DNA of 47,721 nucleotides from contig NC_057758.1 in NCBI RefSeq assembly GCF_004010195.1, positions 7,480,630 to 7,528,350 of the forward strand, in the 5' to 3' direction. The position numbers and the translations under genes are program-made. The notes below the pieces were generated by a model, which worked only from the letters and a program-made list of their open reading frames with translations, did not search any database and had not been told where the DNA came from. Positions within the stretch are counted from its first letter, which is position 1, and every line of letters begins with the position of its first letter. Shown one piece after another: positions 11,435 to 47,721 of this stretch. Source of the DNA: Chiloscyllium plagiosum. Taxonomy: Eukaryota.

Positions 11435-11580
11435 AATCCTTTCATCAGGAATGTCAGGAAGTGCTTATGGCCGAAATGTCCATTGTCCTGCTGCTCAGAT
11501 GCTGCCTGACGTACTGTGCTTTTTCAGTGCCATAAGTTCGGGCTCGGATCTCCAGCAACTGCAGTCCTCACTTTCCCCTT
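11435..11580 (+). mobile_element. PLE 3'-end fragment with short 5' inversion and degenerate HHR
   Basis: Inverted cctttcatcaggaatg joined to gaagtgcttatggccgaaatgtc and the family tail. Confidence 0.75.
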
Positions 11581-11935: not shown

Positions 11936-13395
11936 TCAGTGTGTCCATTAAATCAGTCACTCGGTATGTCAGTGCATCCATTTAGTCAGTCATTCAGTCG
12001 TCTCTGCGTTCATTCGATCAGACAGCCAGTCAGTCAGTGAGTTCAATCAGTCAATCAGTTAGTGCAGACAATCAGCCAGTCATTCAATCAATCAGTGAGT
12101 TTCCATTCAATCTATCTGTCAGTCAGTCAGAATGCCCATTCACTCAGTGAGTGTGTCCATTTGGTCAGGCAGTCTGTCAGTGAGTGTGTCCATTCAGTCA
12201 GTCATTCAGTGCGTCCATTCATTCAATCAGTCAGTCACGGCATCTCGTCATCATTCCGACCATCAGTGCGTCAGGCCAGTCAGTATGACTGTCAGTCCGT
12301 TAATTTAGTCAGCGTCCATTCACTCAGTCATTCAATCCATACGTCAATTATGTCAGTCATTCAGTCAGTCTATCAGTGCGTCCATTCATCCAGTCAGTCA
12401 GTACAGTCGTGCTTTCAGTCAGTGCATCCAGTCAGACGGTCAGTTGGTCAGTGCACCCATTCAGTCAGTCAGACAGTGCATGTGTCCGTTGAATCAATCA
12501 GTCATTGAGTGAGTGTGCACATTCTTTCAGTCAGTCAGTTATTCAGTTAGGACGACCATTCAGTTAGTCAGTTAGTATGTCCACTAAGTCAATCACTCAT
12601 TGAGTCAGAGCGTTAGTTTTGTCAGTGATTTCATTCAGTCTGTCATTCGGTGAGTGCACACATTCAATCATTCAATCAGTGCATTTATTAAGTCCCTCAG
12701 TCAGTCTATCATTGCGTCCATTCAGTGAGTTAGTCAGTTCATCAGTCAGTGCATCCAGTCAGTCAGTCAGTCTGTGCGTTCATCGAGTCAGTCAGTCATT
12801 GAATCAGTAAACCCATTCGATCAGTCCATCATTCAGTGCGTCAATACAGTCAGTGACTGCACATTCAGTATGACATTCACTGCGTCAAGTCAGCCCGTCA
12901 GTGCATGCATTTATTCAATCAGTCAGGGCGTCTCGGCGTCTCGTCATCTGTCAGACAGTCAGTACGTCCAGTCAGTCAGTTACTCAGAGTCCATTCACTC
13001 ATTCAAACAGGGCGTCTATTAAGTCAGTCAGTCAGTCAGTCAGTCAGTCTGCCAGTGCATAGATTCAGTTAGTCAGTGAACTATTCAGTCAGTCAGTCAG
13101 TGTGTCTGTGCTGTCAGTAAGTGCATCCATTCTACTAGTCAGTCACTCTATCATGGAGTTGGTCCATTCAGTCAGTCAGTCAGTAAGTCAGAGGGTCCAT
13201 TCACTCAGTCAGTATATCAATTCAGTCAGTCAATCGGCTGGTGCGTCCATTCAGTCGGTTATTGTGTCTGTACATTAATTCAGTCAGTCCATCTCTGAGT
13301 CTATGCCTCCAGTCAGTATGCCATTCGGTCAGTGCTTAAATTCATTAATTCCGTCAGTGCATTCATTATGTCTGTCAGTCAGTCAGTCTGTCATT
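11935..13395 (+). repeat. Degenerate (TCAG/TCAT)n microsatellite with recurring cagtgcgtccattcagt motif
   Basis: About 1.45 kb of cagt/catt tetramers; pure (AGTC)n at 13022-13048. Confidence 0.9.
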
Positions 13396-17430: not shown

Positions 17431-17822
17431 TTCAAGAGTCTATCCTGGTATCTTTTCGTAGCATTACGATTCAAAGTACAATAACTGCTTTAAATTATTG
17501 ATTGTTATTGCTATATTATTATTGGTTTCGTTGGAGTTTCTGGTAAGCCACTCTATTCAGCCATTGACTGTAAAGCTACATTGAGTTTATGAGCCTGCTT
17601 TCAATTGTTCACTCCCCACACTCTATGCTGCTGTTCCCTTTCTATTTGTTGAAACACTGTATCCGGAAATTGGAGGTGGAAGTATTTTGTGAGTACAGAA
17701 TATAGAACATAGAATATAACATATTACACCACAGTAATAGGCATTGAAACCACCGTGTCGGGCCGAACACGACGCCAAATTGAATTAATCTAATCTTTTT
17801 TTTCTTCCTTGAGTACATATCC

Positions 17823-18717
17823 AGCTAACAGACCCCACCACTAAGGATATATTTCCCTCCCCTGCCCTATCAGCGTTCCAGAAAGACCACTCCCTCTGCG
17901 ACTTGCTCGTCAGGTCTACATCCCCCTCCAACCCAACCTCCACTCCAGACACCTTCCCCTGCAACTGCAAGAAATGCAAAACCTGTGCACACAACTCCCC
18001 CTCACTTCCCTCCAAGGCTCCAAGGATCCTTCCATATCCGTCACAAATTCACCTGCACCTCCACACACATCATTTCCTGCATCCGCTGCACCCGATGTGG
18101 CCTCTTCTACATTGGGGAGACAGGCCGCCTACTTGTGGAGTGTTTCAGAGAACACCAATAGGACATCCGCACCAACCAACACAACCGCCCCGTGGCTGAA
18201 CACTTTAACTCCCCCTCCCACTCCGCCAAGGACATGCAGGTCCTTGGCCTCCTTCATCGCCAGAGCATGGCAACAAGACGCCTGGAGGAAGAGCGCCTCA
18301 TCGTCCGCCTAGGAACCCTCCAACTACAAGAGATGAATGCAGATTTTCCGAGCTTCCTCATTTCTCCAGCTTCCTCATTTCCCCACCCCCCATCTTATCC
18401 AGTCCAAACCCTCGGACACAGCACGGCCTTCTTAACCTGCAATCTTCTTCCCGACCTCTCCGCCCGCACCGCCTCCCCCGCCTTTCACCCTCACCTTAAC
18501 CTCCTTCAAACGATCGCATTCCCAACGCCCCTCCCCCAAGTCCCTCCCCCCTACCTTTTATCTTTGCCTGCTTGGCACACCTTCCTCATTCCTGAAGAAG
18601 GGATTATGCCCGAAACGTTGATTCTCCTGCTCCTTGGATGCTGGCTGACCTGCCGCGCTTTTCCAGCAACACATTTTTCAGCTCTGATCTCAAGCATCTG
18701 CAGTCCTCACTTTCTCC
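17823..18717 (+). mobile_element. PLE, 5'-truncated: GIY-YIG endonuclease, 3' UTR, HHR; 9-bp TSD
   Basis: CIRCTRCGLFYIGETGR...VAEHFNSPSHS...RRLEEERLIVRLGTLQ; HHR at 18592-18619; TSD tacatatcc at 17814-17822 and 18718-18726. Confidence 0.9.
18588..18623 (+). ncRNA. Minimal type I hammerhead ribozyme motif (PLE-associated)
   Basis: CUGAAGA-A-GGGA-UUAU-GCCC-GAAA-CGUU; core boxes intact, one stem II mismatch. Confidence 0.6.
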
Positions 18718-20119
18718 TACATATCCTTCTATCATGGCATCTTCATGTACTTGTCTAAGATACCCTTAAACTCCCTACGTTATCAGCCTCCATCACTACC
18801 ACTGGAAGAGCTATCCAGAAGTCTACCACTGCCAATGTCAAATACATGCGCTTCTCAGTTCCTTTGAACTTGCTCGCTCTCACTTTAAATGCACAGACAA
18901 AGACATTGAACTCTGATAATAAAATTTGGACCGTCAACCCTTTTTATGTAAATAAAAATTTTAAAGGCTTACATTAATTGTCCGCCTCTCCAAAGAAACA
19001 AATCCGAGTTTTCCCAGTCTCCACTTGTAGCTCATATCTTCTAATCCACGAAGTATCCTGAAAAGCCTCTCTTCCACTCTTTGCAAAGCAACCTTCCTGT
19101 GATGTGGCGAATACTATTTGCTGAAACAGTTCAAGACCGGCCGAACTGAAGTCCTACAAAGCTGCAACATGACAGCTTGATTCTTCTACTCAATTTCTTG
19201 ATCTAAAAAGGTAAGCATGCCGTGTGCTTTCTTTAAAGTACCATCGTGGCAATGTTCCGGGAGCTATAAACCCAAACCCCAAGATCCCTCTGTACATCAG
19301 CGCTTTTAGGGTCCTGCCAATAACTGTATACATTTCCTTAACAGATCATCGCCAAAGGTGCAGCACCAAACCTTTACGTGAATTAAAGTTACTTTACCAT
19401 TTCTCCTCCCATATGTCCAATTGACTTATGTTCCGTGACATGCTTTGGAAATCTTCCAAACTATCCTCAAATCCGCTGATATTTGAAACGTCTACAACTT
19501 ACGAACCCACCTCCAACATGTGCATTTTCTTCAAAATCATTTATATTCATCACAAATAGCAGGGGTCATCTGCAGCGCGCCATCAGTCTCTCACATCCAT
19601 CGAGGAAATTACCCTTCCAGCACTGCCCGCTTCCTTCTATAAGCAAGCCAACTCTAGAACAAAGCAGTCATACAATCGTCGACCCCATGCGTTTTTCATC
19701 TTCTGGATGAGCCGACAATGAGGGACTTACTCGAAAACCTTACTAAAACCAACATCGACAACTCCAAATGTTCCACATCGATCACCTTCGACACTTCCTG
19801 GAAAAATTCAATCATTTTTGGCAGGCATGTCATATCCAGCACAAACCCCTGCTGACTAGTCCCAGTCAAACCATTCTTTTCCAAATACGCATAAACAAAA
19901 ATTGCTAAATAATCCGTCGAATAGCTACCCAAGCGGCGATGCACGTCTTACCGATTAACCCTATTTACCTTGCCGAAAAGAGAAAGAACATTAGCTACTC
20001 ACCAGTCCTCTGTTGCATATGCAGTGGCGAGCGAGCATACAATGATCCTGGTCTGCAAAGTTCATGAAGAAATTGTTGAATGTGGATAGGGCCAATGTCT
20101 GATCAATGTTCATTCATCA

Positions 20120-21220: not shown

Positions 21221-21232
21221 CTAACTATTCGT

Positions 21233-21356
21233 AAAGAAGGACTTATGCCCGAAAAGTCGATTCTCCTGCTATTCGGATGCTGCCTGGCCTGCTGTGTTTT
21301 TCCAGCACCACATTTTTCAACTATGGTGCTCCAGCATCTGCAGTCCTCACTTTCTC
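21233..21356 (+). mobile_element. 124-bp PLE 3'-end insertion truncated within the HHR core; 12-bp TSD
   Basis: TSD ctaactattcgt at 21221-21232 and 21357-21368. Confidence 0.85.
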
Positions 21357-25830: not shown

Positions 25831-28800
25831 CCTCCCCCTTCAAGAAGTAGCATAAATATCGAAAGATAGCTTCATTGTTCAAAACCCTCAAAAACATTTT
25901 TTTAGAAATGGTTAGTACTTTAAACACACGTATACATTCACTAACTATAAACATGCAATATGAATAATTACATTTGCATTCAGTTATCGGTTCTCCCACG
26001 ACCGAAAACCTCAATTACTCACTCGACTGTCGAGAATGCATCGTTGATCACGTTTTCTCCACCGGCCACATGGACAATTTCAAATTGTAATACCATGCCC
26101 CAATCAAAACAGTCACGCATTTGTGTGCTTTAATTCCTCAACAACTTTAATATGTTCCGATCAGTGTATACAACTGTGTCCGATGTGTTACTGGTAATAT
26201 AAACACTCAAGCGTTGTCATGCCTACACCCTACTAGATGTCTCTTTCTCAATCGTCAAATATTTCTGCTGATGAACATTCAATTTACTGGCGGAATATTT
26301 TAATCTTCTCACAGTCTTCCTGCAGGAGCATAGCATTGACACCCACATCGCTGGCAGTGATAGCCGCCTTGAAAGGCGTTGGGTGCTCAGGTGTGGCTAG
26401 TACTGGGGCAGTGGTTAAAACAGTAATCAGGCAGGGAAACGGCTTCTGCCAGTCCGCCGTCAACTGAAACTCCTTGCCTTTATTTCGCAATTCATTGAGT
26501 GGAGCTGCCAGACTGCGAAATATGGCACAAAATTTACATAAAATCAACTCAATCACATGAAACCAATTACTCTGGTTTTTGCATCTCCTGGAGCCATTTG
26601 TCCATGTGCAATAGCATGGCCTGGGAAGTTGACTTGGGCTTTCGCAAATTCACGTTTAGCTAGTTTTAGCACCACGCCTGTCTTCCAAATTCGCTCGAAC
26701 AAGCCTGATAAATGCTGTAAAATCTTCCTTCCATGAGTGACTTACAATCACCAGATCATCAATGTAGCAACACAGTTGGCTCATCCGCCAATGGTTTTAT
26801 TCGTTAGTCACTGAAATGAGGCCGCAGCTATTTTCTTACGAAATGGCATGAATTTAATGTGACACCGTCCCTGTGGCGTTACCAAAGCTGAAATGGCGTT
26901 TATTCTTTCTGATAGGGACATCTGCCAGTCAAGTCAAAATGAGAAAATTAACTTGCTTATTCCACCTTTTCAATATAGTTTTCCAGCCATGGAATTGAAT
27001 ATGCAACATTCTTTGTAACGGCACTGCCTTTGCGGTAGTCGCCAACTCCCCAACTCTATTTAATCGATCCCTAAAATTTGGCTTCTAATCCAAATGTGTG
27101 GTCTGTGAAATATGACTAATTTCTCAATCAATTTTAATGGTCCTCTCACTTTATGCCCCTAAATTAATTCAAATGGACTGAATTTGTGAGGTTCGTTTGG
27201 TGCATCTCTGACCGTAAAACAAGATGGAATTTCCTTATCACAAACATCTCGATAATCCTGACTATAAGTCCCAAAATAGTCTTTCCTGTTTTGATGCCAG
27301 CTTTCTTGCGCAGCGTTCCATTGTTTTCTGCTTAAGCTGTCCGTAAGTTCATTGAATAGTTTGGATGTGAAGATTGACACTTGACCTGACTATCTCTATT
27401 GGTAGTCGGTATCTAAAAAGAAGAGTAATTCCTCTACAATCCTTTTATCTGTGATATTGCGTAATAGAATTGCCTCAGGAAATCTCATCGGCACAACCAT
27501 ATTTTTCAACATATATTGAGTCCCACATTTTGTTTGAGACAGGGGACCCATGCAATGTATCAAGACTCTTGTAAAAGTTGCCTCAACTGTTGGAATAGGT
27601 ATTAAGGTGCAAGTTATATTACCTCTTGTAGTTTTGAAATTTCCTGAAATATGTCGCACATCTGACAAAGTTTAATCCTTGTGCACGCCAGGCCAGTAAA
27701 AATGTCTTTGTATTTCAGCCTGTGTTTTCCTCACATCGAAATGTCCTTGCAGTGGTAGCTCATGTGTCACTCGCAACATTTCTTTTTCTATACCCCACTG
27801 TAATACAATTTGATAAATCTCTGCCCATATCTCAAATACTTGAAAAGGAGATGGTCTCCATTTCTTCCGTACAATATCACTTTTCAAACAATACCACATA
27901 GAGAGACATTCAGACTGCAACTGTCTATATGTCATTTGATAAAATTTTGTTTAAGATGTTCCTCTATCTGCTGCAACCCAATTCGTTTTGCAGAGGCAAA
28001 CATATTTTCATGACTATTTCTTTGTTATTGTTTTGTCCCAACCGGCTGATTGACAACCGTCTTCACTAATGCTACTTCAGCTGCTTATCTATACTCTTTG
28101 ATCACTTTGCCTTCAATTGGTGACGTTGTGACCTCCTTACTCAGGAAACAATGCCAGATAAGAATTCTGCATTCCTTCAGTTGCTTGAGTGTCGAATGGC
28201 TTTTCTATTGCAGTAGGCAACACATCTACCGGTGAATTAGCTATATCATTTAAAAGGACAACTTGTATTCCTGGAGCCGAGAGTTTGTCCAGTACTTCGA
28301 CCACAAATTCTGTACTCTCCGCCGGACACTTTGACTTCACTTTGCATAATTGAGTGCATTTTGTCGGACCATGAATTCCCATAACCAGTATCTTTTCTAG
28401 CAACAATTCTCCAGGAATATATATCTCCTCATCCTTCAGCACCGCAGACTGAGAGAATCCTGTGTACTTTAGTAATGTAACATCTTTTCCCGCTACTCCT
28501 GGCCCATCTGAATAAACTTTACCTTTACAGGAATATATTTTTAAACAGATCAGGCGGTTGCTCCTTCATTAACCTATGATCAGCTTGTGCACTCTCATAC
28601 AACTTTCTATCTCTCCCTGCTCTTTCTGTTAGCACTACAACAACACGTCCAGGCTTATCCTGCTTTCCCACGTCTGGCTTTCCTGTGCTTCTCCAACTCC
28701 AACAACACTGTGATTTCATGTGACCCACTTCATTACAATGAAAACACATGAGCTTTTTACCTTCTTTGACTCTTAAATGATTTCCTTTTTTATTCTGTGG

Positions 28801-29494: not shown

Positions 29495-29705
29495 TAGGCG
29501 AATGTGAGGAATTCAGATTTTGGAGATCAGAGTCTTGGGTAGAGTGGTGCTGGAAAAGCACAGCAGGTCAGGCAGCATCTGAGAAGCAGAAAAGTCGACG
29601 TTTCGGGCAGAGTGTTGAAGGGTTCCTGCCCGAAAACTCGATTTTCCTGCTCCTCGCATGCTGCCTGACCTGCTGTTCTTTTGCAGTCCCACTCTAATCT
29701 TGACT
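29495..29705. mobile_element. Fold-back PLE 3'-end mini-element inside gag
   Basis: Inverted arms meet at ~29612 within HHR stem II (cgtttcgggc ... gaagggttcctgcccgaaaac). Confidence 0.8.
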
Positions 29706-30199: not shown

Positions 30200-31013
30200 T
30201 GTTTTGGAATAGGTCAGCCCCCTCAAAACATTTTCAACCAGGTAACCCAGACTGCAAATTTGCTATTTATTTCGCTCAGTGTATAGTGGATATTCCTGGA
30301 GAAAAGTAGATAGGTCGACTTGTAAGTTTTGAACAAACAAGATATATTCACAAAATTATGGAATGAATCACAAAGAAAAGAAAACAGAGTACTGGATAAC
30401 GTGTCCAATGCAATAGGGCGAAAGTGAGGACTGCAGATGCTAATGAATAGAGTCGGGAGTGTGTTGCTGGAAAAACACACAGCAGGAATATGATGAAGGG
30501 CTTTTCTGAAACGACCATCGTCCTTCTACTTGGATGCTCCCTGAACCGCTGTGCTTTTCCAGCACTGCAAACCCGGATCCAATTCAATCCAGACTTAATG
30601 ATGATGTTCTGATAAATAATTGCAACATCCGAACACAAACACACGCACACACATCCCCCAGCACAAACAGTAAAATCAAAGTAAATTTTGCAGTTTGCAG
30701 GGGGAGAGAGCAGTCCAGCAGCCTTTCCCATATTCCATGCAGTGACTGCTCTGATTCAAGTTCTGATCTGAAAACAAAACACTAACCTAAACGAAGGTTC
30801 TCTATTCAGCTAGATGTCCATTCCCCTTTGTTTGTTTTTTTTTCCCCTAAGTCATGAAAGTCTTAAGCTGGATGTATTATCTGTCAGGTAAAGAGAAACG
30901 CCCCACTGGACACTTCAAACTACAGATATGATGGACCCTGGCCAATTACCCCATCTCCACAAAACAATACATCCAGGATATAGTAACCTTATTACAGAAA
31001 CAGTACTGTAACA
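30200..31013 (-). repeat. 5' LTR of the Gypsy element, containing a PLE mini-insertion at ~30415-30585
   Basis: Begins TGTTACAGTAC and ends ...AACA, followed by a degenerate PBS-like ttggggatttctgctggat. Shares blocks such as gaaagtcttaagctg and caggtaaagagaaa with the 3' LTR. Confidence 0.8.
30415..30585. mobile_element. Fold-back PLE 3'-end mini-element inside the 5' LTR
   Basis: Minus arm aaagtgaggactgcagatgc...acagcagg joined to plus arm tgatgaagggcttttctgaaacg... Confidence 0.75.
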
Positions 31014-31152
31014 CATTTGACCGATTTGCAGTGATCTGCCGTCAGAACCATCAAAAGCCGTACTGTATCAAAAGAATTGAAATCCTGTTAGTAACAGTCA
31101 TTACGGGTGTGATCGTATCGCTGAAAATGCCAGTTTTTGTTTTCTTATGAAC
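31014..31152 (-). pseudogene. Exon remnant: Ig1 second half; its 3' end abuts the Gypsy 5' LTR
   Basis: Acceptor tattttttcag, phase 0, VHKKTKTGIFSDT...VTN...QYG, like IGFN1 'IHKV...ADTYKC.A.NEYG'. A likely original donor gtgagg lies beyond the LTR element at 25201-25206. Confidence 0.45.
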
Positions 31153-31722
31153 CTGAAAAAATAATTAGCAAAGTATAGTGGGGCAGCCAGGTAAGAACAA
31201 TTTTTTTCTTGACTACTGCCTGTGTAAAATGTGTCTGGTTTTGCACCGCCTGAGTGATTTACCTTATCTTTACTCTGATTACCTTGTTATGCTTCATTAA
31301 CTGTCCAACTTATTGTCGTGGCAAATAGACAGCAGAACCTCAAGGATCAAAGAGATTCAAAAACATAGACCACAGAAAGTCCCTCCTTTTATTACTGTAT
31401 ATGTCAGTAAGTTATCTTTTTGTCTGGTTGACAATTGCCTTGACTTTAGGTGTTCCTAAACTAACGAACACCGTTTATTCCAAAGGCCAGTAGACAAACG
31501 CTAAAATCACCGCTATTGAAGTTTTAGATGCCTCGCAGCTTTTGAATTGTTTTCGAAACACTTGTATTTATGCAGAGACAAAGATCAAGTTCAGGGCAGA
31601 ATCTGAAGAATATGGAAAAATCACCATGGATGTTAATTTGGTGATCAGGTCAAGAGAATTTTGTGAAATGAATTCAATGCAGCAATTAGTTCTGACCAAT
31701 AAAGTTTTTCTTTCTCATCTTT

Positions 31723-31884
31723 CTCCATCAGAAAACGTCCTTGTCTGTCTTAAAATGAAACATTATTCATTTCAATATTTGTATATCTTGGATTCACCAT
31801 AGTACCTTTGACTTGGGTAATCTTTTACGTTTTCCCATTTCTTTGTTGAGAAAAGACAGCCTACTCCAGTAAAAATAGCATTTC
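31723..31884 (-). pseudogene. Exon remnant: Ig1 first half
   Basis: Acceptor ttcag, phase 1, reads (G)NAIFTGV... and after a frameshift ITQVKGTMVNPRY...DRQGRFLME, like IGFN1 'GK.AIF.AVV...VTW.R.KG.M....Y.....GEYILE'. Donor not found. Confidence 0.55.
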
Positions 31885-31962
31885 CTGAATTCAGAGATCC
31901 ACAATAACGGAGTTAAAAATCACACAACACCAGATTATAGACCAACGGGTTTAATTGGAAGC

Positions 31963-31999
31963 ACACTAGCTTTCGGAGCGACGGTCCCTCGTCAGGTGG
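31963..31999 (-). ncRNA. Minimal type I hammerhead ribozyme motif
   Basis: CAC-CUGACGA-G-GGACC-GUC-GCUCC-GAAA-GCUA-GUG; stem I CAC/GUG, one stem II mismatch. Confidence 0.65.
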
Positions 32000-32222
32000 T
32001 AGTGGAGGGATCAACCCTAACACACAGAATTTATTAAAACTTACAGTGTGACGTAACTGAAATTACACAGTGCAAACTTGATTTTCTGTTAAGCCTTTCA
32101 TTTGTGAGTATACAGTGATATCTTCACTTCTTTCATGTGTAAATCACAAAACCTTTTCTTAAAAAAGATGCATTCTTGAGTTAGCTGTTAACAATGGTGA
32201 TAGCTAGACAATATGTTGAAGG

Positions 32223-32934
32223 TTCTGGATTAGTGGTGCTGGAAGAGAACAGCAGTTCAGCCAGCATCCAAGGAGCTTCGAAATCGACGTTGCAGGCAAA
32301 AGCCCTTCATCAGGAATAAAGGCAGTGAGCCTGGAGGGTGGAGAGATAAGCTAGAGGAGGGTGGGGGTGGGGAGAAAGTAGCATAGAGTACAATGATTGA
32401 GTGGGGGAGGAGATGAAGGTGATAGGTCAGGGAGACAGTGGGAGAGGGACTCCCTGAGATTCCTGTAGAGAGAGGAGGAAAAATTCTTCAAGGCAGGCAT
32501 CCTTGCAAGAAGATTCGCAGTAGGGTTAAAATCAACGAGGTAAAAACAATGACTGCAGATGCGGGAAACCAGATTGTGGATTAGTGGTGCTGGAAGAGCA
32601 TAGCAGTTCAGGCAGAATCCAAGGAGCTTCAAAATCAACGTTTCGGGCAAAAGCCCTTCATCAGGAATAACGGCAGTGAGCCTGGAGCGTGGAGAGATAA
32701 GTTGGAGGAGGGTGGGGGTGGGGAGAAAGTAGCCATGAGAACAATGGTTGAGTGGGGTAGGGGATGAAGGTGATAGGTCAGGGAGGGAGAGGGACTCCCT
32801 GAGATTCTTGTAGAGAGAGGAGGAAAACCATTTCAAGACAGGCATCCTTGCAAGAGGATTCGCAGTAAGGTTAAAATCAACGAGGTAAAAACAATGACTG
32901 CAGATGCTGGAAACCAGATTCTGGGTTAGTGGTG
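32223..32934 (-). mobile_element. Head-to-tail dimer of a ~350-nt HHR-containing unit (non-LTR retrozyme-like or tandem pseudo-LTR)
   Basis: ttagtggtg recurs at 32230, 32581 and 32926 (units of 351 and 345 nt); one HHR per unit. Confidence 0.85.
32633..32668 (-). ncRNA. Minimal hammerhead ribozyme, core intact
   Basis: CUGAUGA (32664-32658)-A-GGGC-UUUU-GCCC-GAAA (32644-32641)-CGUU. The sister copy at 32283-32317 has GCAA for GAAA and a GUC triplet. Confidence 0.75.
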
Positions 32935-33329
32935 TTGGCCCCCTGAGTTCTCTGTCTATGCCATGATGTTTAGATTGATACTAATCTAAAAATTAGGATA
33001 ACGGAGTTTTACATAAATTCATGCAGTTTTGAGCTCAGAGATCTTCATGATTGCATGCAGTATTTGAGCAAAGTACAATGTAACCCTGCAAGTACAAATT
33101 GACCCCATAAAATATATGTGTGCACGTTGGTCTTTGTCTGTCTGTCTGTGTGTGTGTCGGTCTGGATTGGGGGTTGAGAGTGTGAGAAAGTGTATATGTG
33201 TGTGTAGTGAGTGCAGAGTGTCTTAAGTCTGTGAGGGGGTGAGTGTGGGAGTGTGTGTTTCTGTCATGGTGTGTGTGGGTGTTTATGTGCGCGTCTTCAT
33301 CTATGTGTGTCCGTGTGTATGTGTGTATT

Positions 33330-36300
33330 ATCCAGGCAGAATACTTTCCAACTATAGCCACTCTCTGCCTTCTGTCAGCCAGACAATTCTGAATCCAAAT
33401 AGCCAAATTTCCCTGTATCCCATACTTTCTGACTTTATGAATGAGTCTACCATGAGGAATCCTATCAAATGCCTTGCTGTAAACTATATACACCACAACC
33501 ACTGTTCGACCATCGTCGACATATTTTGTCACTTGCACGAAGAATTCAATGCAATTTGAGAGGCATGACCTGCCCCTCACAAAGCCATGCTGAATGCCAT
33601 TAATCTCACGATGCTTTGCCAAATAGCTATAATTCCTATCCCTCAGAATTCTTTCCAAAACTTTACTGACCACAGACGTAAGACTGACAGGTCCGTAATT
33701 GCCAGCGATTTCTCTATTCCCTTCTTGAAACGAGGGACACCATTCACATCCCTCCAATCCTCCAGTACGACTCCCGTAGAGATTGAGGAGACAAATATTC
33801 CCGCCAGCGCCTCAGAAACCTCCTGCCATGCTTCCCGAGCAGCCTAAGATAAATCTGATCTGGCCCTGGGGACATAATCAACCTTAATGTTTGCCGAACT
33901 TTCCACCAAATCAACTTTATCGATCTTGATCTGGTCAAGACTGTATCCCAGCCCCTCAAAGTTTTCATTTACGTCAATTTGCCTTTCCTTGGAGGAAACT
34001 GAAGCAAAACACTCAGTTAGGGCTTCCCCTATCTGCACAGATTCCATGCACAAATTCTTTCCACTATCCCTGTTCGGCCCGAACTTCTCCCTGATCATTC
34101 TCTTATTCAGCACGTATGAATAACATGCCTTTAGCTTCTTCCTAATGCTTCTTGCCTTTTTCATGCCTCCTCCTGGCTCTCCTTAGTTTATTTCTTAGCT
34201 CGTTTCTAGCAGGCCGGTAATCCTCTAAAGCTGATCCTTGCCTCCTCCACTTTCTGGAAGCTGCCTTTTTCCTTTTGACGAGAAGCTCCTCTGTTCTCGT
34301 CATCCAAGATTCCTTATCATTACCCCTTCTTACATTTCTCTGGGGGACAAATTCGTGCATTACTCGCAACGACTACTATCTAAATAGTCTCCACATATCT
34401 GCTATGCCTTTTCTGTGGAACAATTAATCCCAGTCTGTACTTCCCAACACCTGTCTGACAACGTCATAATTTCTTTTTCCCTAATTAAATATTTTCCCTC
34501 GGTAACTGCTACATTCATGCTTCAGGTTTATGCTAAATATGAGGCAATTGTGATCAATGTCACCAAAGCGCTCTCCCACAGCGAGATCTGACACCTGTCC
34601 TGGCTCTATTGCCGAGCACCAAATCCAAAATGGCCTCTCTCCTCGTCGGTCTTTCTACATACTGAGTAAGGAAACCCTCCTGAACACACCTGACAAAAAC
34701 GGCTCCATCCAAACCATCTGCACATAGGAGGTTCCAGTCGATATTGGGAAAGTTCAAATTACCCTTAATAACAACCCTGTTACTTTTGCATTTTTCTGGT
34801 ATCTGCCCACCTATGAGTTCTTCAATCTCTCTACTGCTATTAGGTGGTCTGTAGAAAACCTGCAATGCGGTGGCTGTACCCTTGCTTTTCCTAACTTCCT
34901 CTCATACTGACTCAGTAGACAAATCTTCCTCAACAACGTTCGTTTCTGTAGCTGTGATGCACTCTCTGATTAGAAATGCTACATCCCCTCCTCTTTTTCC
35001 ACCCTCCCTGTTCTTTATCAACGTTCTGAACCTTGGAACATCAAGCAACCATTCCTGTTCCTGTGAAACCCATGTCTCCGTTATTGCCACAACATCGTAG
35101 CCCCAAGTACTGATTCATGTTCTACGTTCATCATTCTTATTTCGGACTCTCCTTACATTAAGGCAGACACACTTTAACCGATCCCTTTGTTTAATCGCAT
35201 GACAAACCTTCCTAATAGATTTAATACATCCTGTCACTGACCCATCTACAACTGACCATCTCTCAGAAATGTGGCTGATTCCCTCCCCCCCTGCCAAACG
35301 AGCTTAAACCTTCCCGAATCACACGAGCAAACTTCCCACTCAGGGCAGTTGTGCCTCTCCAGATCAGGTGCAACACCCCGTCCTTCACGTACAGGCCCCA
35401 CCTTCCCCATATGGTATCCCAATGGTCTAGGTATCTGAAGTGCTCCCTCCTGCCCCAGACTCGCAGCCACGTGTTCTGCTGCATTCGCTCAATGTTCCTT
35501 ATCTCACGATCTCATGGCACCCGTAGCAAACCTGCGATCACTACTCTGTTCGTCCTGCTATTCAGCATCCAACGTAACTCTCTGTAGTCACTTTCCAGGT
35601 CCTCAATCCCTTTCCTGGCCATGTCATTGGTGCCAATATGTAAAAGGATTTCTGTTTGCTCACCCTCATCCTTCACAATTTTACCAACCCGATCGGCGAC
35701 ATCCTGTTCCCTGACACCGGGCAGGCAACATTCCTTCCGGGAGTTCGGTGCCTGACCACAAAATCTCCTGAAAATCCGTCTAATTATTGAGTCCCATACC
35801 ACTTCCGCTTTTCTAATTTCCCCACCTCCCTTCTGAGCCACAGTGCCAGGCTCAGTGCCAGAGGCCTGACAACCTAATAGGCTGTCCCCATCAGCAGTAT
35901 GCAAAACGGCATACTGAGTGCTGAGGGGAATAGCCACAGGTGTCCCTGCTCTGACAGTCGGTTCACTTTCCTCCCCCTGAACGCAACCCAGCTGTGCTTA
36001 TCCTGTGTCTGGGAAGTTACCACCTCCCTGTACATTCTCTCAATACCCCCTTAGCCTACCGGATGATCCATTGTTCATCCAGCTCCAGCTCCAGTTCCCT
36101 AACTTGTTTTTCGAGGAGCTGGAATTGGGCGCACATCCCGCAGATTTAGTCGGCAGAGACAGGTGAAGTGTCTCTCACCTGCCACATTGTGCAGGAGGAA
36201 CATGCAACTGCCCTAACATCCATATCCCGGTACTCTGAAAGCCAGCACATGACTAAGCTAAGGAAGAGGAAAAAAAGAGAGAAATCTGAAAACTTAACTA

Positions 36301-36490
36301 GCTTACAGACCCTTATTAAAGTTAAAAGAGGTATGTGGGAGGGAGGCCCTATGCTGTAAGGTCTCGGGTTTAGATCTCACCCACTTAAAAACTTCCCAGC
36401 AGTCCTTTGCTCCTCCCTCGCACCTCTCGGCAAATGGAAGCCCTGACGCCGCAAGTAAGTGTTTTAAGCAGTCAGACTCACCTTCCCAGC
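33330..36490 (-). mobile_element. CR1-clade LINE 5' two-thirds: 5' UTR, ORF1 (SGNH esterase-like), EN and RT N-terminus
   Basis: EVVWDSIIR...CCLPG...HIGTNDM (ORF1); AITETW, FYRPPNS, GNLNFPNIDW, AILDLVLGN (EN); NYGPVSLTSVVSKVLE, QHGFVRGRSCLSN (RT). Confidence 0.92.
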
Positions 36491-36539
36491 AATCTGTTTC
36501 TTTTTAATTGTCATTTATTCAATCAATCTCTGTAGTTTG

Positions 36540-38990
36540 GAGCAGTCAGAATGAAGGCAAGCACAGTTGCATGTTCCTCTTGCAGGATGTAGGAAATAAA
36601 AGACTCCACCGGTGCACTTACTGACTTTGCTGGCGAGAAGTATACCGAACTCCAGCTCTCAGAGACTGCAGTTGGAACTGGACAAACTTCGGAACATTAG
36701 GGAGGCGGAGTGGGATGAATGAAGAGGAGTTATGGGGAGACAGTCACAATTAAGTTGCAGTAAAAAGGTGGCTCCGCTACCGTGATCGGATGGAAAGAGA
36801 ATAGACAGACATTGTTGGGCCGTTCAAGCAATAGTCAGAATGCAGTTTTGGAAACTGCTAGCGGAGGAGCACGCAGTGTCCACCAACACCATGGAATTGT
36901 TCAGGGAGAGGTGAGCGCCGCAGGGAGTGGAGTGCATTATTGCCCCATCCAAGTCTATTTTGATTTGATCCCTGCATCCCCTTCACTATCTCATCACGCA
37001 GCATTATCTATGGATGTGAAGGGTACTGCTTGTCACAGGCCAGTCGGCTGTTTCCTTTCTTCCTGGTGGTGGAAAATTGAGGAGAAAGTGAGGTCTGCAG
37101 ACGCTGGAGATCAAAGCTGAAACTTTATTGCTGGAACAGCACAGCAGGTCAGGCAGCATCTCGGGAACAGAAGATTGAATAAAGATTCGTGCATCTCGTG
37201 TCTTTCACTGTGTCTCACACCTGCACACACACAACATGGGTGCTGGGGAAAAATAAGCACTACCGCAGTTAGGTGTTAGTGTAGGGGTAAAAAGGGGTAG
37301 GAGTGTATAAAAAGGAAACTGCTAGCGGATCGACCGACAAGGGGAAATCCAAAGCGGCCAGATTTCTGACGCTGAACCTGGCTATGTGGCTGATAAAATA
37401 AGAGGGGAGAATAGGACAGCAATAGGGATAGGAGGTTCAGTGGTGAGAGAAACAGACAGGAAATTCTGTGGCGTGAGTTGGACTCCTGGATAGTGTTGCC
37501 TTCCGGCTGCCAAGGTCAGGGCTGCCTGTGATCGCGTCTACAGGATGCTTAAGGGGAGGTAGAGCAGCCAGAAGTCGTGGTGCACATCGGTAGCCAATGG
37601 CGTTGGGAGAAAAAGGGAGGAAGACCTAAAAAGCGAATATACGGAATTTAGTTGTAAGCTAGAAGGCAGTATGAACAGAGCAGTAATCTTCGGATTGTTG
37701 ACCGTGCCACGTGCTAGTGAGGCTATGAATAGAGAGCTAGAGCAGATGGAAACGTTGGTTGCAGGGTTGTTGTCCAAGGAAGGGCTTCAAATATGCGAAT
37801 ATTTAGGATACTTTCTAGCGAAGGTAGGAGCTTTCCAAGAAGGACCGATGGCATCTGAACTGTAGGAGCAACAATATTCTGGGCACCAAGTTTGCTCGAA
37901 ACTGGTTTTGCATGGTGGTAGGGACTGAGCTACGGTTCAAATAATGGAGTATGTAGCGAACGCCCAGATACAGCGCACAGAGTGTCTGTGAGGAGGGAGA
38001 GGCACTTGAAAGAGAAGAGATGCAGTCAGAGGGTTTAACTGTGTCTATTTTAATGCAAGAGTGTCAGAATAAATTTTGGCGAACTTGGAACATAGATCAG
38101 TACTTGCAACATGATGTGGTATCCGTTATGAAGACTTGGATATCACAGAGAGAGGAATGGTTGTTGAATGTTCCAGGTCTTGTGGTTTCGAACTGATGAG
38201 GGGAAAGTAAAAGACTTGGTGGAGTGGCATTGCTAGTCAGTAATACTACACGTGCTCTAGAAACAGAAATCATCGAGAAGGGGTTGTCTCCAGAATCAGT
38301 GCCGGTGGAAATTAGGAACAGGAAAGGAACATCACTTGATTGGGAATTTTCTATCGGCCACCAATACCAACAGAGGCAAAGAGGAGCAGACTGAGAAGCA
38401 GATACCGGAAATGGGTCGAAGTAATGTGGACGTTGTTCTTGGTGACTTCAAAGCCACTAATATTGCTTTGAACCTACTTAGTTCAAGCAGTTGGATGAAG
38501 ATTTTCTCAGATGTGTCCAAGAAGGGTACTTGATGCAATATATCGATTGGCTGGGTAGAGATAAGGCCAAATTGAATATTAGTGCGTGGCAATGAACCTA
38601 GCCAGCTGAAAAATCTCTCGGTGGGAGAGCATTTTAGTGCTAGCGATCACAGCTCCATGACATTAACTCTCCTCATGGAGAAGGATAGCAGCAGACGGTA
38701 TTGGAAAGTTTTTAATTGGGGGCTAGGGAATCATGTTACTTTTCAGCAAGAACTGAGGTACCTAGATTTGGAAGCAATATTCTCAGGAATGTGCATAACA
38801 AAAATGTGGAGTTTCTTTCAGAAGCACCGACAGAAAGTGCTACTCAGTTTTGTCCCAGTGAGGCAAGGAAGTAGTTTGAAAGAATCTCGGATAACAAGTA
38901 ATGTGGAAGATCTCGTCCACAGGATGATCAATATTACTCAAGGTTGAAGAGGTAAGGATCATACGGGGCTTTAGAGGATTGCAAAGTAGC
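36540..38990 (+). mobile_element. CR1-clade LINE ORF1 plus EN, decayed, with a PLE-related insert at ~36870-37320
   Basis: VIFGLLTVPRASEAMNR (ORF1); VVLGDFKATNI, EHFSASDHSS (EN); PLE tail ggagaaagtgaggtctgcag at 37081. Confidence 0.8.
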
Positions 38991-39179
38991 CAGGAAGTAC
39001 CATCAATTTTTGGGAGGAAAGTAGCCAGGAAGTACCATCAATTTTTGGGAGGATAGAGAGTGAGAGAGAGAATGTGTAATGGAGAATGGGACAGAGAGAG
39101 AGAGAGAGAGAGATAAAGAAAGAGAGCGTTAGAGAGAGAGGAAACTAGTGGCTGACGGGAAAGTAAATTTCCCCAGTTA

Positions 39180-39760
39180 AAAGGCACTAAACTCGAGCCT
39201 CAGTGGCCTTCGAGCTTTGAGTGACCCGATGTCGTTTAAGGAGTACGGTTTGTGTTCGAAAACGAGACTCCCCAATGGTATGTAGCCACCCAGGTGTACT
39301 CAGAGCGGCCGCAGAACATTCTGAAGATGGAAGGTGAACAACCAATTGTCGTGGTGCATAAACGTACCAATGATGTAGGTAAAAAAAAAGGACTGGCATC
39401 CGACAAGCAGAATTTAGAGAGCTTGTTGCCAAGTTAAAAAGTACGAACTCAGTGGTAGTAATGGCAGGGCTGTTACCAGTGCCGCTTGCTCACCAGAGTT
39501 GACATGAAAGAATAAACATGGCTTGAGCGATAGTGCAGGAGGAAGGGTTCTGATTTTTGCGACATTGAGACTGGTTCTCGGGCAGGTGCGACTATTACAT
39601 ACTTCACAGTCGACACGTGGACTGGACTGGAACCAATGTCCTCAGGCTTGCTTTTTGTGATACAGTGGGGAGGGATTAAAGTATATTTTCGCAGTAGCGA
39701 TGGAGAGAAACAGAGATACAGAGGACCAGGGGCCTGCTGGGAAGGGTAATTTCCCATTTA
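39180..39760 (+). mobile_element. CR1 ORF1 esterase fragment
   Basis: QNILKMEGEQPIVVVHKRTNDVG. Confidence 0.75.
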
Positions 39761-39939
39761 AAGTGTCAGGCTTCCATTTGCAACAGCGGTGAGAGCGACG
39801 AGCGGAGTGGGAGCGGTCGAATAGCCACTCGGAAGGTGAGTGAACCAATACATTTGGTGAGTGGATGAACCCCCAACACAATACGCGTGTAATGTTTCCC
39901 ACCCGCTCTCGTCCTCCAATCAAAAACAAAGGACTCTGT

Positions 39940-42900
39940 GAAATGTTGATCATGTTTTAGTTTTTTTTAATCCTGTGCATTTCCTTTTGTTCATTATCCC
40001 TTTATCTAAGTTAAGATTACGATTAGAAATGGCAGGAGATAAACTGTTTTTCTTCGGTTTTTCAATATGGAAGCTCAAGAAGACACCTGATGTCCCTGAC
40101 TCCTCGTGTGCTGTAAAGGTGTTTCGCTGCAACACTTGTTCGACCGCATGACAGCTCTGGAGCTGCGGATGGACTCACTTTGGAGCTTACGCGATATTGA
40201 GGGAAGTTGTGGTTTGCACGTTTAGTGAATTGGTCACACCATAGATTAGGATTGCTGAGGGAGAATCGGAATGGGTGACGAAACGGTACAGAAAGCGCAG
40301 GAAGGCAGTGCAGGTGCAGCCTTCGGGTCATCTCCTTCCAAACAGGTGTACCGTTTTGGATGCTGTCACGAGAGATGGACCCTAAGAGAACGCAGCATCG
40401 GTCTGGTTCAGAGCACCTTGACTGGCTCTGGTGTACAGAAGGGTGGGAAAATGAGTCGAAGGCCTATATTCATCGGGGATTCAACTGTAAGTGGAATACA
40501 TAGTCCGTCTTGTGTTTGGAAACGAGACTCCAGAATGGTATGTTGCCTCACAGGTTCACGGGTCAGAGATGTTTCAGATCGGCTGCAGAATGTTCTGAAG
40601 AGGGAGGATGAACAGCCAGTTGTTGTGGTGCATACAGATTGCAATAGCAGAGGTAGGAAAAGCGGAGAATCCTACAAGAAGTACTAAGGGTGTTGAGAAT
40701 CATGTTAAAAATTAAGACCTCAGATGTAGTAATCTCAGGATTTCCAACACTGCCACCCGCTCCTCAGATTCCATGTTAAAACATAGGCAGGATGAATGTG
40801 TAGCTTGAGAGACGGTCCGTGGGAGGGGTTCATATTTTTTGAGATTTCAGAACTGGTTCTGGCTAAATGGAAAAATGACAATTTGGATTGTCAACAGCTG
40901 GGTCGGACTGGACTAAAGTCCTTGTGGATGCTTTTTCTAACGCTGTTGTGGTGGATTTAAACCAATGTGGCAGCGGATGGGAACCAAATGAGGAAAGTAG
41001 CGGACAGTAGGAAGGTAGTAACTGAAGGCTAGAAGGATCTAGAAATTGAGGTCAACGGGATTCAAGAGAAGTTTAGGCAGGGAACTAATGATGATCGAAA
41101 AGGGAGTGGTTGCCTGAGATGCACTTGTTTTAATGCAAGAAGTTTGTTCGGAAAGGTAGATGAACGTCTACCTGACAGAATGACATTATTGCCATTACTG
41201 AGACTTGGTTGAGGGAAGGGTACAGAACATAGAGTATTGACCATACAAAGTAACAGCGCAGTTCCGTCCCTTTGGCCCTCGATGTTGCTCCAATCTGTGA
41301 CATTAATCTGATGCCCATCTAACCTACCATGTTCTGTTAATATCCATATGTTCGTCCCATGCCTATTTAAATGCCCTTAACGTCGGCGGGTCTATTACCG
41401 TTGCAGTCACGTCGGTCCACGAGTCGACTATTCTCTGAATAAAGAAACTACCCCTGATATCTGTCCTAAGTCTCTCACCCTTCAATTTAAAGCTATGTTA
41501 GTCGTCACCATCCTGGGGGGAAAAGGCATCCATTGTCCACCGTATCTAAGCTTCTGATCAACATGCACGTCTTGATTAATTTGCCTCTCAACGTTCTTCT
41601 CTTCAACGAAAATAGCCTCAGTTCCCTCGGTCTTTCCTCGTAAGACCATTCTTTCATACCAGGAAATATCCGAGAAAATCCTCTCTGAAACCTTTCCAAA
41701 GCTTCCACATCTTTCCTATATTTTGGTGACCACACTATAAGTAAAACCTCAGGTGCAGCATTACCAGCATGTCCTCGTGGCTTTGAAACTCAATCGCTGT
41801 ACCAGTCAACGGCAGCACATCCAGATCATTAATAGACATGACAAACAACAGTGGCCCCAAAACAAATCCTTGTGGCACACCACTGGTAACTGAGCTCCAA
41901 TATGAACATTTCCTATCAATCATCACACTCTGTCTTTTTCAGTTAACCAATTACCGATACAGATCTCTAAATGACCTTCAGTCCCGAAACACCACATTCT
42001 ATGCAATGATAGGCAACTAAATTTGCCAGGATATCGATGGTTCAGGCCGGATAGGGAGGGCAGTAAAAGTAGTGCAGATTTTGCAGAAAATAGGGTTCGA
42101 TGGAGGACTAGAGCAGTGAGGCAATATGGGCAGACCTCAGAAAAAATAGGGGTGCAGTAACAATGTTGGAGCAGTACTACAGGCCTCCCAATGAAGAGTG
42201 TAATTTCGAGGTGCAAATATATAAACAGATTATAGAAAGACATCAGGCATCAGGGTGATGGCGACAGGAGACTCAATTTTTTCAACATTGACTGGAATTC
42301 ATTTAGTGTTAGTGGTGTAGATGGAGCAGCATTTGTCAGGAGCATCCAGGAGGGCTTTCTAGAGCAGTATATAAATAATCAAATTCAGGAAGAGGCCGTA
42401 CTGGACGTGGTGTTGGGGAATGAGACCAGCCAGGTGGTTGATGTTTCAGTATGGGATTAGTTTGGGAATAGTGATCACAAGTACATACGTTTTAGAATAC
42501 TCATGGACAAGATGAGAGTGGTCCTAATAAAAGAATGCTAATTTGGAGTACCGACTACTATTGCAAAATTCGGCAGTATCTGGGCAATTTAGAATGGGAA
42601 CAATGTAGGACCAATCTGGAACGAGGAATTCAGAAGGAGAAAAGGGTCATGAGATATCTTTACAAACAGGGTTAACTGAAATCATGAGGCCTTGTATTCA
42701 TATATAAGGAGCAAGAGAGTGACTCGAGAAATGGTTGGCCCACTCAGGAGACATAGGAGGAAAGCTATGCATGGAGTCAGAAAAAAATGTTTGAGACTCT
42801 TAACGAGTTCTTTCAGTTCGTATTCACCGAAGGGTCGGAGGTGGCGGCTGCTAACGTGGAAGATAGACATTTGCTTACTTCAGGTCATGTCGGCATAAGG

Positions 42901-45375: not shown

Positions 45376-47425
45376 ACGTTCATCTACCTTTCCGAACAAA
45401 CTTCTTGTATTAAAACAAGTGCATCTCAGGCAATCACTCCCTTTTCGATCATCATGAGCACCCTGCCTAAATTTCTCTTGAATCCCGTTGACTGCAATTT
45501 CTATTTCCTTCAACGCTTCAGTTACTACCTCCATACTGTCCGCTACCCTCGTCATTTGTTTCCCTTCTGCTGCCACATTAGTTTAAAACCACCACAACAG
45601 CGTTAGAAAACGCATCCCCAAGGACATTGGTCCAGTCCGACCCAGGTGTTGACCCAGGTGTTGACAATCCAAATTGCCATATTTCCATTTAGCCAGAACC
45701 AGTTCTGAAATCTCAAAAATATGAAACCCTCCCACGGACCGTCTCTCAAGCTACACATTCATCCTGCCCATGTTTTAAAATGGAATCTGAGGAGCGGGTT
45801 GCAGTGTTGGCAATCCTGAGATTACTACAGCTGAGGTCTTAATTTTTGACATGATTCTCAACACCGTTCGTACTGCTTGTAGGATCTCTCCCCTTTTCTA
45901 CCTCTATCATTGCAATCTGTATGCACCACGACAACTGGCTGTTCATCCTCCCTCTTCGGATTATTCTGCAGCCGATTTGAAACATCCCTGACCCGTGAAC
46001 CTGTGAGGCAACATACCATTCGGGAGTCTCGTTTCCAAACACAGGACGGACTACGAATTCCACTTACAATTGAATCCCCTATGACTCTTTTTCCCACCCT
46101 TCTGTACACCAGAGGGTGGTTTAAGGTGCTCTGAACCAGACCGATGCTGCGCTCTCCTGGGGTGCCATCTCTCGTGACAGTATCCAAAACGGTATACCTG
46201 TTTGGAAGGAGATGACCGGAAGGCTGCTCCTGCACTGCCTTCCTGCGCTTTCTCTATCGTTTTGTCACCCATTCCGATTCTCCCTCAGCAATCCTAATAT
46301 ATGGTGTGACCAATTCACTAAACGTACGAACCACACCTCCCTCAGCATCGGTAAGCTCCAAAGTGAGCCCATCCGCAGCTCCAGAGCTGTCATGCGGTCG
46401 AACAAGTGTTGCAGCGAAACACCTTTACAGCACACGAGGAGTCAGGGACAGCAGGTGTCTTCTTGAGCTTCCACATTGAAAAACCGAAGAAAAACACAAT
46501 TTATCTCCTGCCATTTCTAATCGTAATCTTAACATTGAGAAAGAGATAATGAACAAAAGGAAATGCACAGGATAAAAAAAGTAAAACATGATCAACATAC
46601 CGCAGAGTACTTTGTTTTTGATTGGAGGACGAGGGCGGGTGGGAAACATTACATGTGTAGAGGCTCGGGTTCATCCACTCACTAAATGTATTGGTTCACT
46701 CACCTTCCGAGTGTCAATTCGACCTCTCCCACTCCGCTCGTCGCTCTCACCGCTGTTGCAAATGGAGGCCTGACACATTAAGTGGGAAATTTCCCTTCCC
46801 AGTAGGCTTCTGGTCCTCTGTATCTCTGTTTCTCTCCATCGCTACTGCGAAAATATACTTTAATCCCTCCCCAACTGTATCACAAAAAGCAACCCTGAGG
46901 ACATGGGTTCCAGTCCAGTCCAGGTGTCGACTGTGAAGTATGTAATAGTCCGACCTGCCCGAGAACCAGTCTCAATGTTGCAAAAATCAGAACCCTTCCT
47001 CCTGCACTATTGCTCAAGCCATGTTTATCCTTTCATGTCAACTCTGGTGAGCAAGCGGCACTGGTAACAGCCCTGCTATTACTACCTCAGAGGTCGTACT
47101 TTTTAACTTGGCAACAAACTCTCTAAATTCTGCTTGTCGGATATCAGTACATTTTTCTTACCTACATCACTGGTGCCTTTATGCACCACGACAATTAATT
47201 ATTCACCTTCCACCTTCAGAATGTTCTGCGGCCACTCTGAGTACATCTGGGTGGCAATATACCATTGGGGAGTCTCGTTTTCGAACACAAACCGTAGTCC
47301 CTAAACGACATCCGGTCACTCAAAGCTCGAAGGCCACTGATGCTCGAGTTTCGTGCCTTCTAACTGGGAAAATTTACCTTCCCGTCAGCCACTAGTTTCC
47401 TCTCTCTCTCTAACTCTCTCTTTGT

Positions 47426-47468
<43 letters not shown>

Positions 47469-47721
47469 CCATTCTCCATTACACATTCTCTCTCTCACTC
47501 TGTATCCTCCCAAACATTGATGGTACTTCCTGGCTACTTTGCAATCCTCTAAATCCCCGTATGATCCTTTCCTCTTCAACCTTGAATAATATTGTTCATT
47601 CTGTGGACTAGATCTTCCACATTACTTGTTATCCGAGATTCTTTCAAACTACTTTCTTGCCTCACTGGGACAAAACTGGGTAGCACTTTCTGTAGGTGCT
47701 TCTGAAAGAAACTCCACATTT
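45376..47721 (-). repeat. Inverted copy of 38802-41167 (segmental duplication arm, truncated by the gap and the window end)
   Basis: The reverse complement is colinear with 38802-41167, including TE junctions, the (GA)n tract and the spacer; roughly 90% or more identical by eye. Confidence 0.92.

Follow-up and report, generated by a model that had tools for sequence, protein, structure and literature searches.

A retrozyme-like tandem in Chiloscyllium plagiosum: two decayed PLE pieces that may have been joined by RT jumping

How does a tandem dimer of a hammerhead-bearing unit arise in this genome, and is it a retrozyme? The question is raised by a 710-nt insert in the window, by which we mean the whole 47,721-nt stretch of Chiloscyllium plagiosum DNA that was analyzed (contig NC_057758.1, positions 7,480,630 to 7,528,350). 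The original prediction described two units about 90% alike, inserted inside another PLE with ggt at the junctions, and both statements hold. The units lie head to tail at 32226-32576 (351 nt) and 32577-32921 (345 nt). They are identical in 320 of 342 aligned columns, with 12 gap columns (89.6% by BLAST), and the monomer word is found at 32224, 32575, and 32920. The total length equals two units plus 14 nt; the dimer is absent from the output of Tandem Repeats Finder run on the window. The empty site of the host repeat is known from 905 exact genome copies, and reads and contigs connect 32220 with 32931 over a 710-nt skip, with three letters (GGT) fitting both sides. There is no clear target-site duplication beyond this possible GGT, and the 5′ end of the insert displays an 8-nt near-match between element and target.

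The element is read on the minus strand, with U1 at window position 32921 in unit A (the second unit of the original prediction) and 32576 in unit B. Positive U positions run into the tail and the ORF start, and negative ones denote the pseudo-LTR preceding U1. Each unit consists of a PLE tail and the first ∼140 nt of the element joined to its last ∼210 nt, i.e. the 3′ pseudo-LTR with a minimal hammerhead (Table 1). About 3.5 kb of ORF is absent from each unit, which is non-coding, containing only N-terminal ORF fragments and encoding neither RT nor endonuclease. The element had been described as non-autonomous, derived from a pseudo-LTR, and retro-inserted into another PLE, all of which is supported; an origin from the PLE tail alone is not, since each unit also contains ∼140 nt of the PLE start. 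The unit B join is 6 nt longer than the unit A join.

Table 1. Features of the insert and its host element, in window coordinates
Feature	Position	Strand	Remarks
Host PLE (other family), left part	31911..32223		own hammerhead motif at 31964-31998, minus strand
3′ end of insert, at U2-3	32224..32225	minus	tail-less one of the two preferred family 3′ ends
Unit B second part: 3′ end/pseudo-LTR	32226..32434	minus	
Unit B minimal hammerhead motif	32280..32320	minus	core GAAA changed to GCAA at 32292; GUC kept; predicted cut after 32286
Unit B join, leader U141 to pseudo-LTR about U-205 to U-208	32425..32452	minus	single genome copy at ≤2 mismatches
Leading part of unit B (the 3′ unit): tail plus leader, up to U141	32436..32576	minus	
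Unit A second part: PLE 3′ end/pseudo-LTR	32577..32784	minus	
Unit A minimal type I hammerhead motif	32631..32671	minus	intact core; GUU triplet in place of family GUC; cut predicted after 32637
Unit A join, leader U137 to pseudo-LTR about U-207 to U-213	32776..32797	minus	present here and in the near-copy on C96664 only
Leading part of unit A (the 5′ unit): PLE tail at U1-39 plus the beginning of the long ORF region, up to U137	32785..32921	minus	
5′ stub of insert, from a third pseudo-LTR (its final ∼12 nt)	32922..32933	minus	host overlap by microhomology, element GGTGCTGG vs host GGTGTTGG (plus strand)
Host PLE, right part	32931..33122		reaches about 33320 against one copy

The host element is another PLE (about 31911-32223 together with 32931-33120 and beyond), with a weak RT match in one of the six host loci examined (L111). 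In five paralogous flanks (86-90% identity) matching stops at 31911-31914, and these are therefore without host and without insert. A near-copy of the locus on contig C96664 is 96-98% alike (96% to the left of the insert, 98% to the right) and has both host and insert, with ∼210 nt of unit B lost. Its units A and B differ in family-type letters at five sites, and its unit B shares the private core change of window unit B. The window units share rare letters, with a family frequency of 3% at two sites and 10-13% at three. None of the 12 flank paralogues compared, among them the five without the host element, has a one-unit form of the locus.

As compared with L117 and L168-L177, window 31000-39577 belongs to a group of segments that have been duplicated, many of them lying on contig C49; the flank of this region gave 40 scored matches (64-96%). 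An independent insertion of the same family (L129:960-1920) occupies the identical position in the same host repeat, with 14 nt of target sequence duplicated and a 5′ piece in inverted orientation, which suggests a preferred target site. Pfam identifies an RT fragment of a LINE-like element adjoining the host PLE (33035-33811, minus strand) and an RNase H-like fragment of an LTR-type element (26284-26649, minus strand). The window also contains a large inverted duplication, about 90-95% alike over >2 kb (38802-41167 and 45376-47721), and a long degenerate simple-repeat tract based on TCAG (11938-13392).

A genome search with the middle of the unit gave 1,239 candidates, of which 40 were scored. 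In 30 loci compared, U1-137 is ∼96% alike and is followed either by the ORF or by a join to the element 3′ end, the join point varying by locus; the first part of unit A is 96% like 19 of these 30, which continue differently past U137. Proteins predicted from the ORF of relatives match Pfam RVT_1 above cut-off in two of three cases and GIY-YIG in two of three, the latter with E values of 4e-4 and 1e-3 that are below the Pfam curated cut-off. As read in L091 and L095, RT is followed by a C-terminal GIY-YIG domain with two Cys between GIY and YIG, and a CX4CxxC linker lies ahead of GIY-YIG, while L102 spans leader, RT, and pseudo-LTR across ∼3.8 kb. This domain order was pieced together from separate natural copies, no intact full-length parent ORF being present among 12 partly read loci. 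According to the available text of the sources, a CX2-5CxxC linker between RT and endonuclease marks Neptune and Nematis (PMC8557442), and Neptune and Poseidon are the vertebrate PLE clades (bioRxiv 10.64898/2026.07.22.740005). The parent is therefore, by its linker, a Neptune or Nematis element, and it is assigned to Neptune as the vertebrate clade, on sequence motifs rather than on an RT tree.

The family has the pseudo-LTR with a minimal hammerhead and the optional 30-40 nt tail, and it is abundant. Exact pattern searches of the genome gave 18,175 hammerhead motifs and 1,490 leader words, 632 of which reach a hammerhead 40-230 nt downstream, as well as 22 leader-leader pairs 200-450 nt apart at 17 loci. 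These counts are lower bounds, the window itself being missed by one mismatch, and reversed-pattern controls gave 0. Sister families have left at least eight older PLE end fragments in the window, which are 68-87% like the pseudo-LTR of the unit (1602-1752, 7256-7403, 11458-11566, 17813-18758, 21226-21345, 29543-29693, 30491-30587, and 37129-37172). Several are inverted pairs, and the fragment at 17813-18758 comprises a decayed endonuclease region and has retained a hammerhead motif.

Each unit had been credited with one minimal hammerhead. A motif is indeed present once per unit on the minus strand, but the core is changed in unit B and the triplet is GUU in unit A. The motif call rests on reading against published features of minimal hammerheads, because both Rfam, which gave no hammerhead match in a scan of the window at E≤1, and Tandem Repeats Finder were silent. 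The cut is predicted between U-60 and U-59. Among 167 family copies, <1% have the C that is found in the unit B core. Altering the GAAA at this position would block hammerhead cleavage, and the unit B hammerhead is predicted to be inactive. The locus lacks both a run of two units with complete type I hammerheads (unit B has GCAA, unit A has GUU) and a canonical hammerhead with helix III, its motif being of the minimal PLE type on which Rfam is silent. The monomer has a GC content of 49%, and a modeled circle is 40% paired, with a predicted energy of −60.3 kcal/mol vs −52.3 ± 4.2 for 100 shuffles, about 1.9 SD below.

Release of a monomer today, as originally envisaged, is unlikely because only one core is whole. 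It is hardly conceivable that the locus is at present a self-cleaving cassette giving monomer or circular RNA. On the dimer model, the unit A core could cut the GUC of unit B in a double hammerhead, giving one cut; two are required, however, and the unit B core is altered. Moreover, each unit has 9-15 rare private changes, a pattern resembling neutral decay, and the near-copy is without ∼210 nt of unit B. Sequencing data of a library type blind to circles, namely two raw poly(A) single-cell runs and contigs compared with 32100-33050, yielded 1,151 family-level reads in one run, 92% of which diverge, and zero in the second, with no pile-up of starts or ends and no piece spanning the stretch. 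The best share of the locus covered in any RNA run was 0.37, from poly(A) single-cell reads and contigs of relatives only, and four contig sets gave nothing further when compared with L047.

The ends of family members bear on how copies are made. Ends were called in 122 locus clusters, giving 143 3′ ends and 131 5′ starts. The 3′ ends peak at U1-7 (41 of 143) and at U35-41 (52 of 143), while the cleavage site at U-60/-59 has no 3′ end and three 5′ starts. Circularly permuted ends, which the original prediction expected, were thus not borne out; the insert ends at U2-3, a fixed family end. Two further clusters were rejected as end signals: 5′ starts at U-90 to U-83, which include sister families whose likeness begins at the hammerhead, and 29 of the 143 3′ ends at U-10 to U0, mostly alignment ends in sister subfamilies. 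Flank repeats of 8-15 nt are found in 8 of 63 multi-part inserts, and therefore at least some short copies inserted already short. In the anole PLE, two internal RT start sites bracket the tail, as reported in the available text of PMC11167929. A fixed 3′ end alone is compatible with a circle, because RT would begin at that internal site on a circle as well.

We next consider the joins. At ≤2 mismatches, a genome search found the unit A join in two places (the window and the C96664 near-copy) and the unit B join only in the window; a gapped join pattern gave four matches, including one further locus with a different join. A retrozyme family built on the window monomer is therefore unsupported: its joins are private to this locus and one near-copy, and there is no multi-copy family of this monomer. 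Joins are diverse, 30 consecutive short leader-hammerhead loci falling into 22 join classes. In 17 distinct young joins the mean overlap is 2.2 nt vs 0.98 for random pairs, a weak statistic that is biased upward by best-of-several matching and confined to young joins, older copies differing from the references.

Including the window, 21 loci have at least two consecutive leader-to-pseudo-LTR joins. In 19 of the 20 other chains the last two joins are unlike, and in one (L045) they are alike, with 15 of the 20 carrying a single shared young join and L054 and L055 perhaps not being independent. Identical joins also occur inside longer chains (L016 and L043), and monomers with two hammerheads exist (L007, L057, L070, and L075). 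The most widely copied unit, defined by one join common to 18 loci, has spread although its hammerhead is mostly changed: in 15 of 18 loci the pseudo-LTR after this join has CUGAUGG instead of the core CUGAUGA, and in 11 of 18 it bears five shared marks, whereas the next pseudo-LTR downstream has a normal core in 14 of these 15. This young 281-nt unit (L118-L135, on 16 contigs) is dispersed within chains of 2-6 units and is the closest thing here to a propagated retrozyme-like subfamily, though its core is changed. Its spread is in line with the normal in vitro insertion of anole hammerhead mutants. A monomeric circle would give like units and like joins, whereas chains such as these would be expected from a linear donor that bears an additional 5′ unit and is copied each time with a new jump across the ORF; the family pattern points to copying from linear templates with jumps, and rolling circles fit it poorly. 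A 299-nt unit (L063, L065, L068, L072, L086, L037, and others) has at least six break points in one fixed leader/pseudo-LTR register, as if a jump guided by an imperfect match had been resolved at different places. A 34-nt minisatellite derived from leader U63-102 lies inside a PLE at L081:1148-1454 and L085:1710-1987, with the same downstream join.

Taken together, these findings lead us to propose, with about an even chance of being right, that the insert consists of two decayed, ORF-less Neptune-type PLE pieces, probably made by RT jumping on linear RNA from a fixed start. Target-primed reverse transcription would begin at U2-3, and RT would copy ∼210 nt of pseudo-LTR before jumping to the leader (U141). 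It would then copy the leader and the pseudo-LTR preceding it and meet a second join of the same kind, which may reflect another jump or a unit that a rare linear donor already contained, and would stop at a short match to the target. Neither hammerhead cleavage nor a circle would be necessary. Here, as under the two alternatives considered below, the copy has decayed since insertion; it is likely inert. This proposal is consistent with the frequency of ORF skipping (632 of 1,490 leader copies, with varied joins), the two 3′-end peaks resembling the tail-bracketing RT start sites of the anole PLE, the unlike last joins of other chains, and the overlap at young joins. The 18-locus join is flanked by unlike pseudo-LTRs, as expected from a linear donor, unit B of the C96664 near-copy has other family-type letters than unit A, and anole PLE hammerhead mutants still insert in vitro. 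The window joins, however, nearly coincide (to ∼1 base on the pseudo-LTR side and a few nt on the leader side), which independent jumps seldom give. The units also share rare letters, as expected from one template or from duplication, no donor with the unit A join was found in the genome search, and the comparison chains are dominated by one young join, include two loci that may be dependent, and offer one counterexample among the older chains (L045). Single joins could possibly result from DNA-level deletion after insertion; rotifer PLE copies have internal microhomology deletions ascribed to DNA repair in the part of PMC3846280 available to us.

The near coincidence of the joins and the shared rare letters would be readily explained if a jump-made monomer had inserted and had later been doubled in place at the DNA level, by unequal exchange or slippage over the 14-17 nt terminal repeat, with a 6-nt loss altering one join. 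That the joins are private, that monomers of this build far outnumber chains (632 vs 22 leader-leader matches at 17 loci), and that local amplification is proposed as a route in the accessible text of Li et al. (bioRxiv 10.64898/2026.07.22.740005) point the same way. We nevertheless regard such doubling as less likely than jumping: the one-unit form is absent among the flank paralogues, and in the near-copy the two units are unlike at five family-type sites, although its unit B shares the core change of window unit B. The latter pattern calls for conversion at a later stage whichever model is adopted, and it is more easily explained by units that were unlike at the outset. Still less probable is the route put forward originally, in which a deleted copy with two hammerheads is transcribed, cut twice, and closed to a ∼350-nt circle, around which PLE RT travels twice from its usual internal start. 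A circle would account for a length of two units plus 14 nt and for near-identical joins, it is compatible with the fixed 3′ end, two-hammerhead monomers and a chain with the same join twice (L045) do exist, and such a route has been proposed for PLEs (PMC4209133, in the text available). It is disfavored by the other chains of the family, 19 of 20 of which end in unlike joins, and by the mostly changed core of the most widely copied unit. Furthermore, the genome searches found no donor or sister copy with the window join, the cleavage site is nearly devoid of ends (no 3′ ends and 3 of 131 5′ starts), and the would-be circle is only 40% paired. In the portions of the literature available, metazoan minimal hammerheads cleave poorly even as dimers (PMC4209133), and eight of nine Xenopus dimers were uncleaved (bioRxiv 10.64898/2026.07.22.740005). 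RT jumping on linear RNA thus remains our preferred explanation. Extended to the family, it suggests, a little more tentatively, that retrozyme-like tandems are born without circles: RT would jump from the 3′ pseudo-LTR to a narrow leader zone in about four of ten leader copies, and the resulting units, fixed at the 5′ end of linear donors, would spread as chains of unlike units despite a changed core, the window dimer being an old product.

How does the insert compare with known systems? As described in the text available of the cited papers, Neptune-clade PLEs share the hammerhead build, i.e. an extra base after CUGAUGA, a G-C closing stem II, a palindromic CG, and no stem III loop (Cervera and De la Pena 2014, PMC4209133), and likewise display a pseudo-LTR, an optional 30-40 nt tail, partial tandems, and inverted 5′ pieces (PMC4209133; Craig et al. 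2021, PMC8557442). Their ORF (RT, Cys linker, and C-terminal GIY-YIG) is as in the parent of the insert (PMC8557442). In contrast, the insert has only the two ends, twice, and encodes no RT or endonuclease. In Poseidon of Anolis carolinensis, two RT start sites lie on either side of the tail, in agreement with the two 3′-end peaks found here (Frangieh et al. 2024, PMC11167929), and insertion did not need hammerhead cleavage, mutants inserting in vitro. However, this element belongs to another clade, and ORF-skipping jumps are not described in the part of that paper available to us.

Retrozymes in a cartilaginous fish have been reported, although the original prediction was not aware of a described elasmobranch family. 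The accessible text of Li, Clavereau and Pollet (2026, bioRxiv 10.64898/2026.07.22.740005) describes vertebrate non-LTR retrozymes, including some in one cartilaginous fish that average 363 bp, ties them to PLE pseudo-LTRs, and reports cleavage of one of nine Xenopus retrozyme dimers. The insert resembles these in having non-coding tandem units near 363 bp that are related to a PLE pseudo-LTR. Unlike the retrozymes termed active there, it lacks two consecutive complete motifs, and unlike the retrozymes in general it has no monomer family, its unit includes the ORF start, and its family forms chains of unlike units. The family may already be listed in the supplementary species and family tables of that preprint. 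The definition of non-LTR retrozymes was based on canonical hammerheads, monomers present in multiple copies, and circles in abundance (PMC7229834, available text). Coral, mussel, and axolotl retrozymes (Cervera and De la Pena 2020, PMC7229834) share with the insert a 150-450 nt monomer, a head-to-tail arrangement, a GC content just below 50%, and a type I hammerhead. As presented in the same text, they have canonical hammerheads, homogeneous multi-copy families, and abundant self-paired circles, whereas the insert has a minimal PLE-type motif and a private monomer and is known here from DNA alone. Our literature search, which covered sources other than Repbase and subscription papers, found no account of a shark retrozyme of this family, of the window PLE family, or of frequent ORF-skipping jumps in PLEs; in the part of PMC6155905 available, sharks are mentioned for the name of a ribozyme only.

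The locus is therefore a decayed tandem of two non-autonomous PLE pieces, a real feature of an ordinary kind, and, according to the available text of the 2026 preprint, retrozyme-like tandems in one cartilaginous fish and their PLE origin have already been reported. In itself the locus is minor, one decayed copy in a genome with >18,000 PLE ends that bear hammerheads. More can be learned from the way in which jumps and unlike units recur throughout the family, as this bears on the origin of PLE tandems and retrozymes. Joins and marked pseudo-LTRs in hundreds of loci offer a DNA-only readout that distinguishes rolling circles from template jumps on linear RNA, and the present sample points to jumps. 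Screens for a tandem plus a hammerhead will score such scraps as retrozymes. If tandems arise without circles, many vertebrate "non-LTR retrozymes" would be products of jumps rather than of rolling circles.
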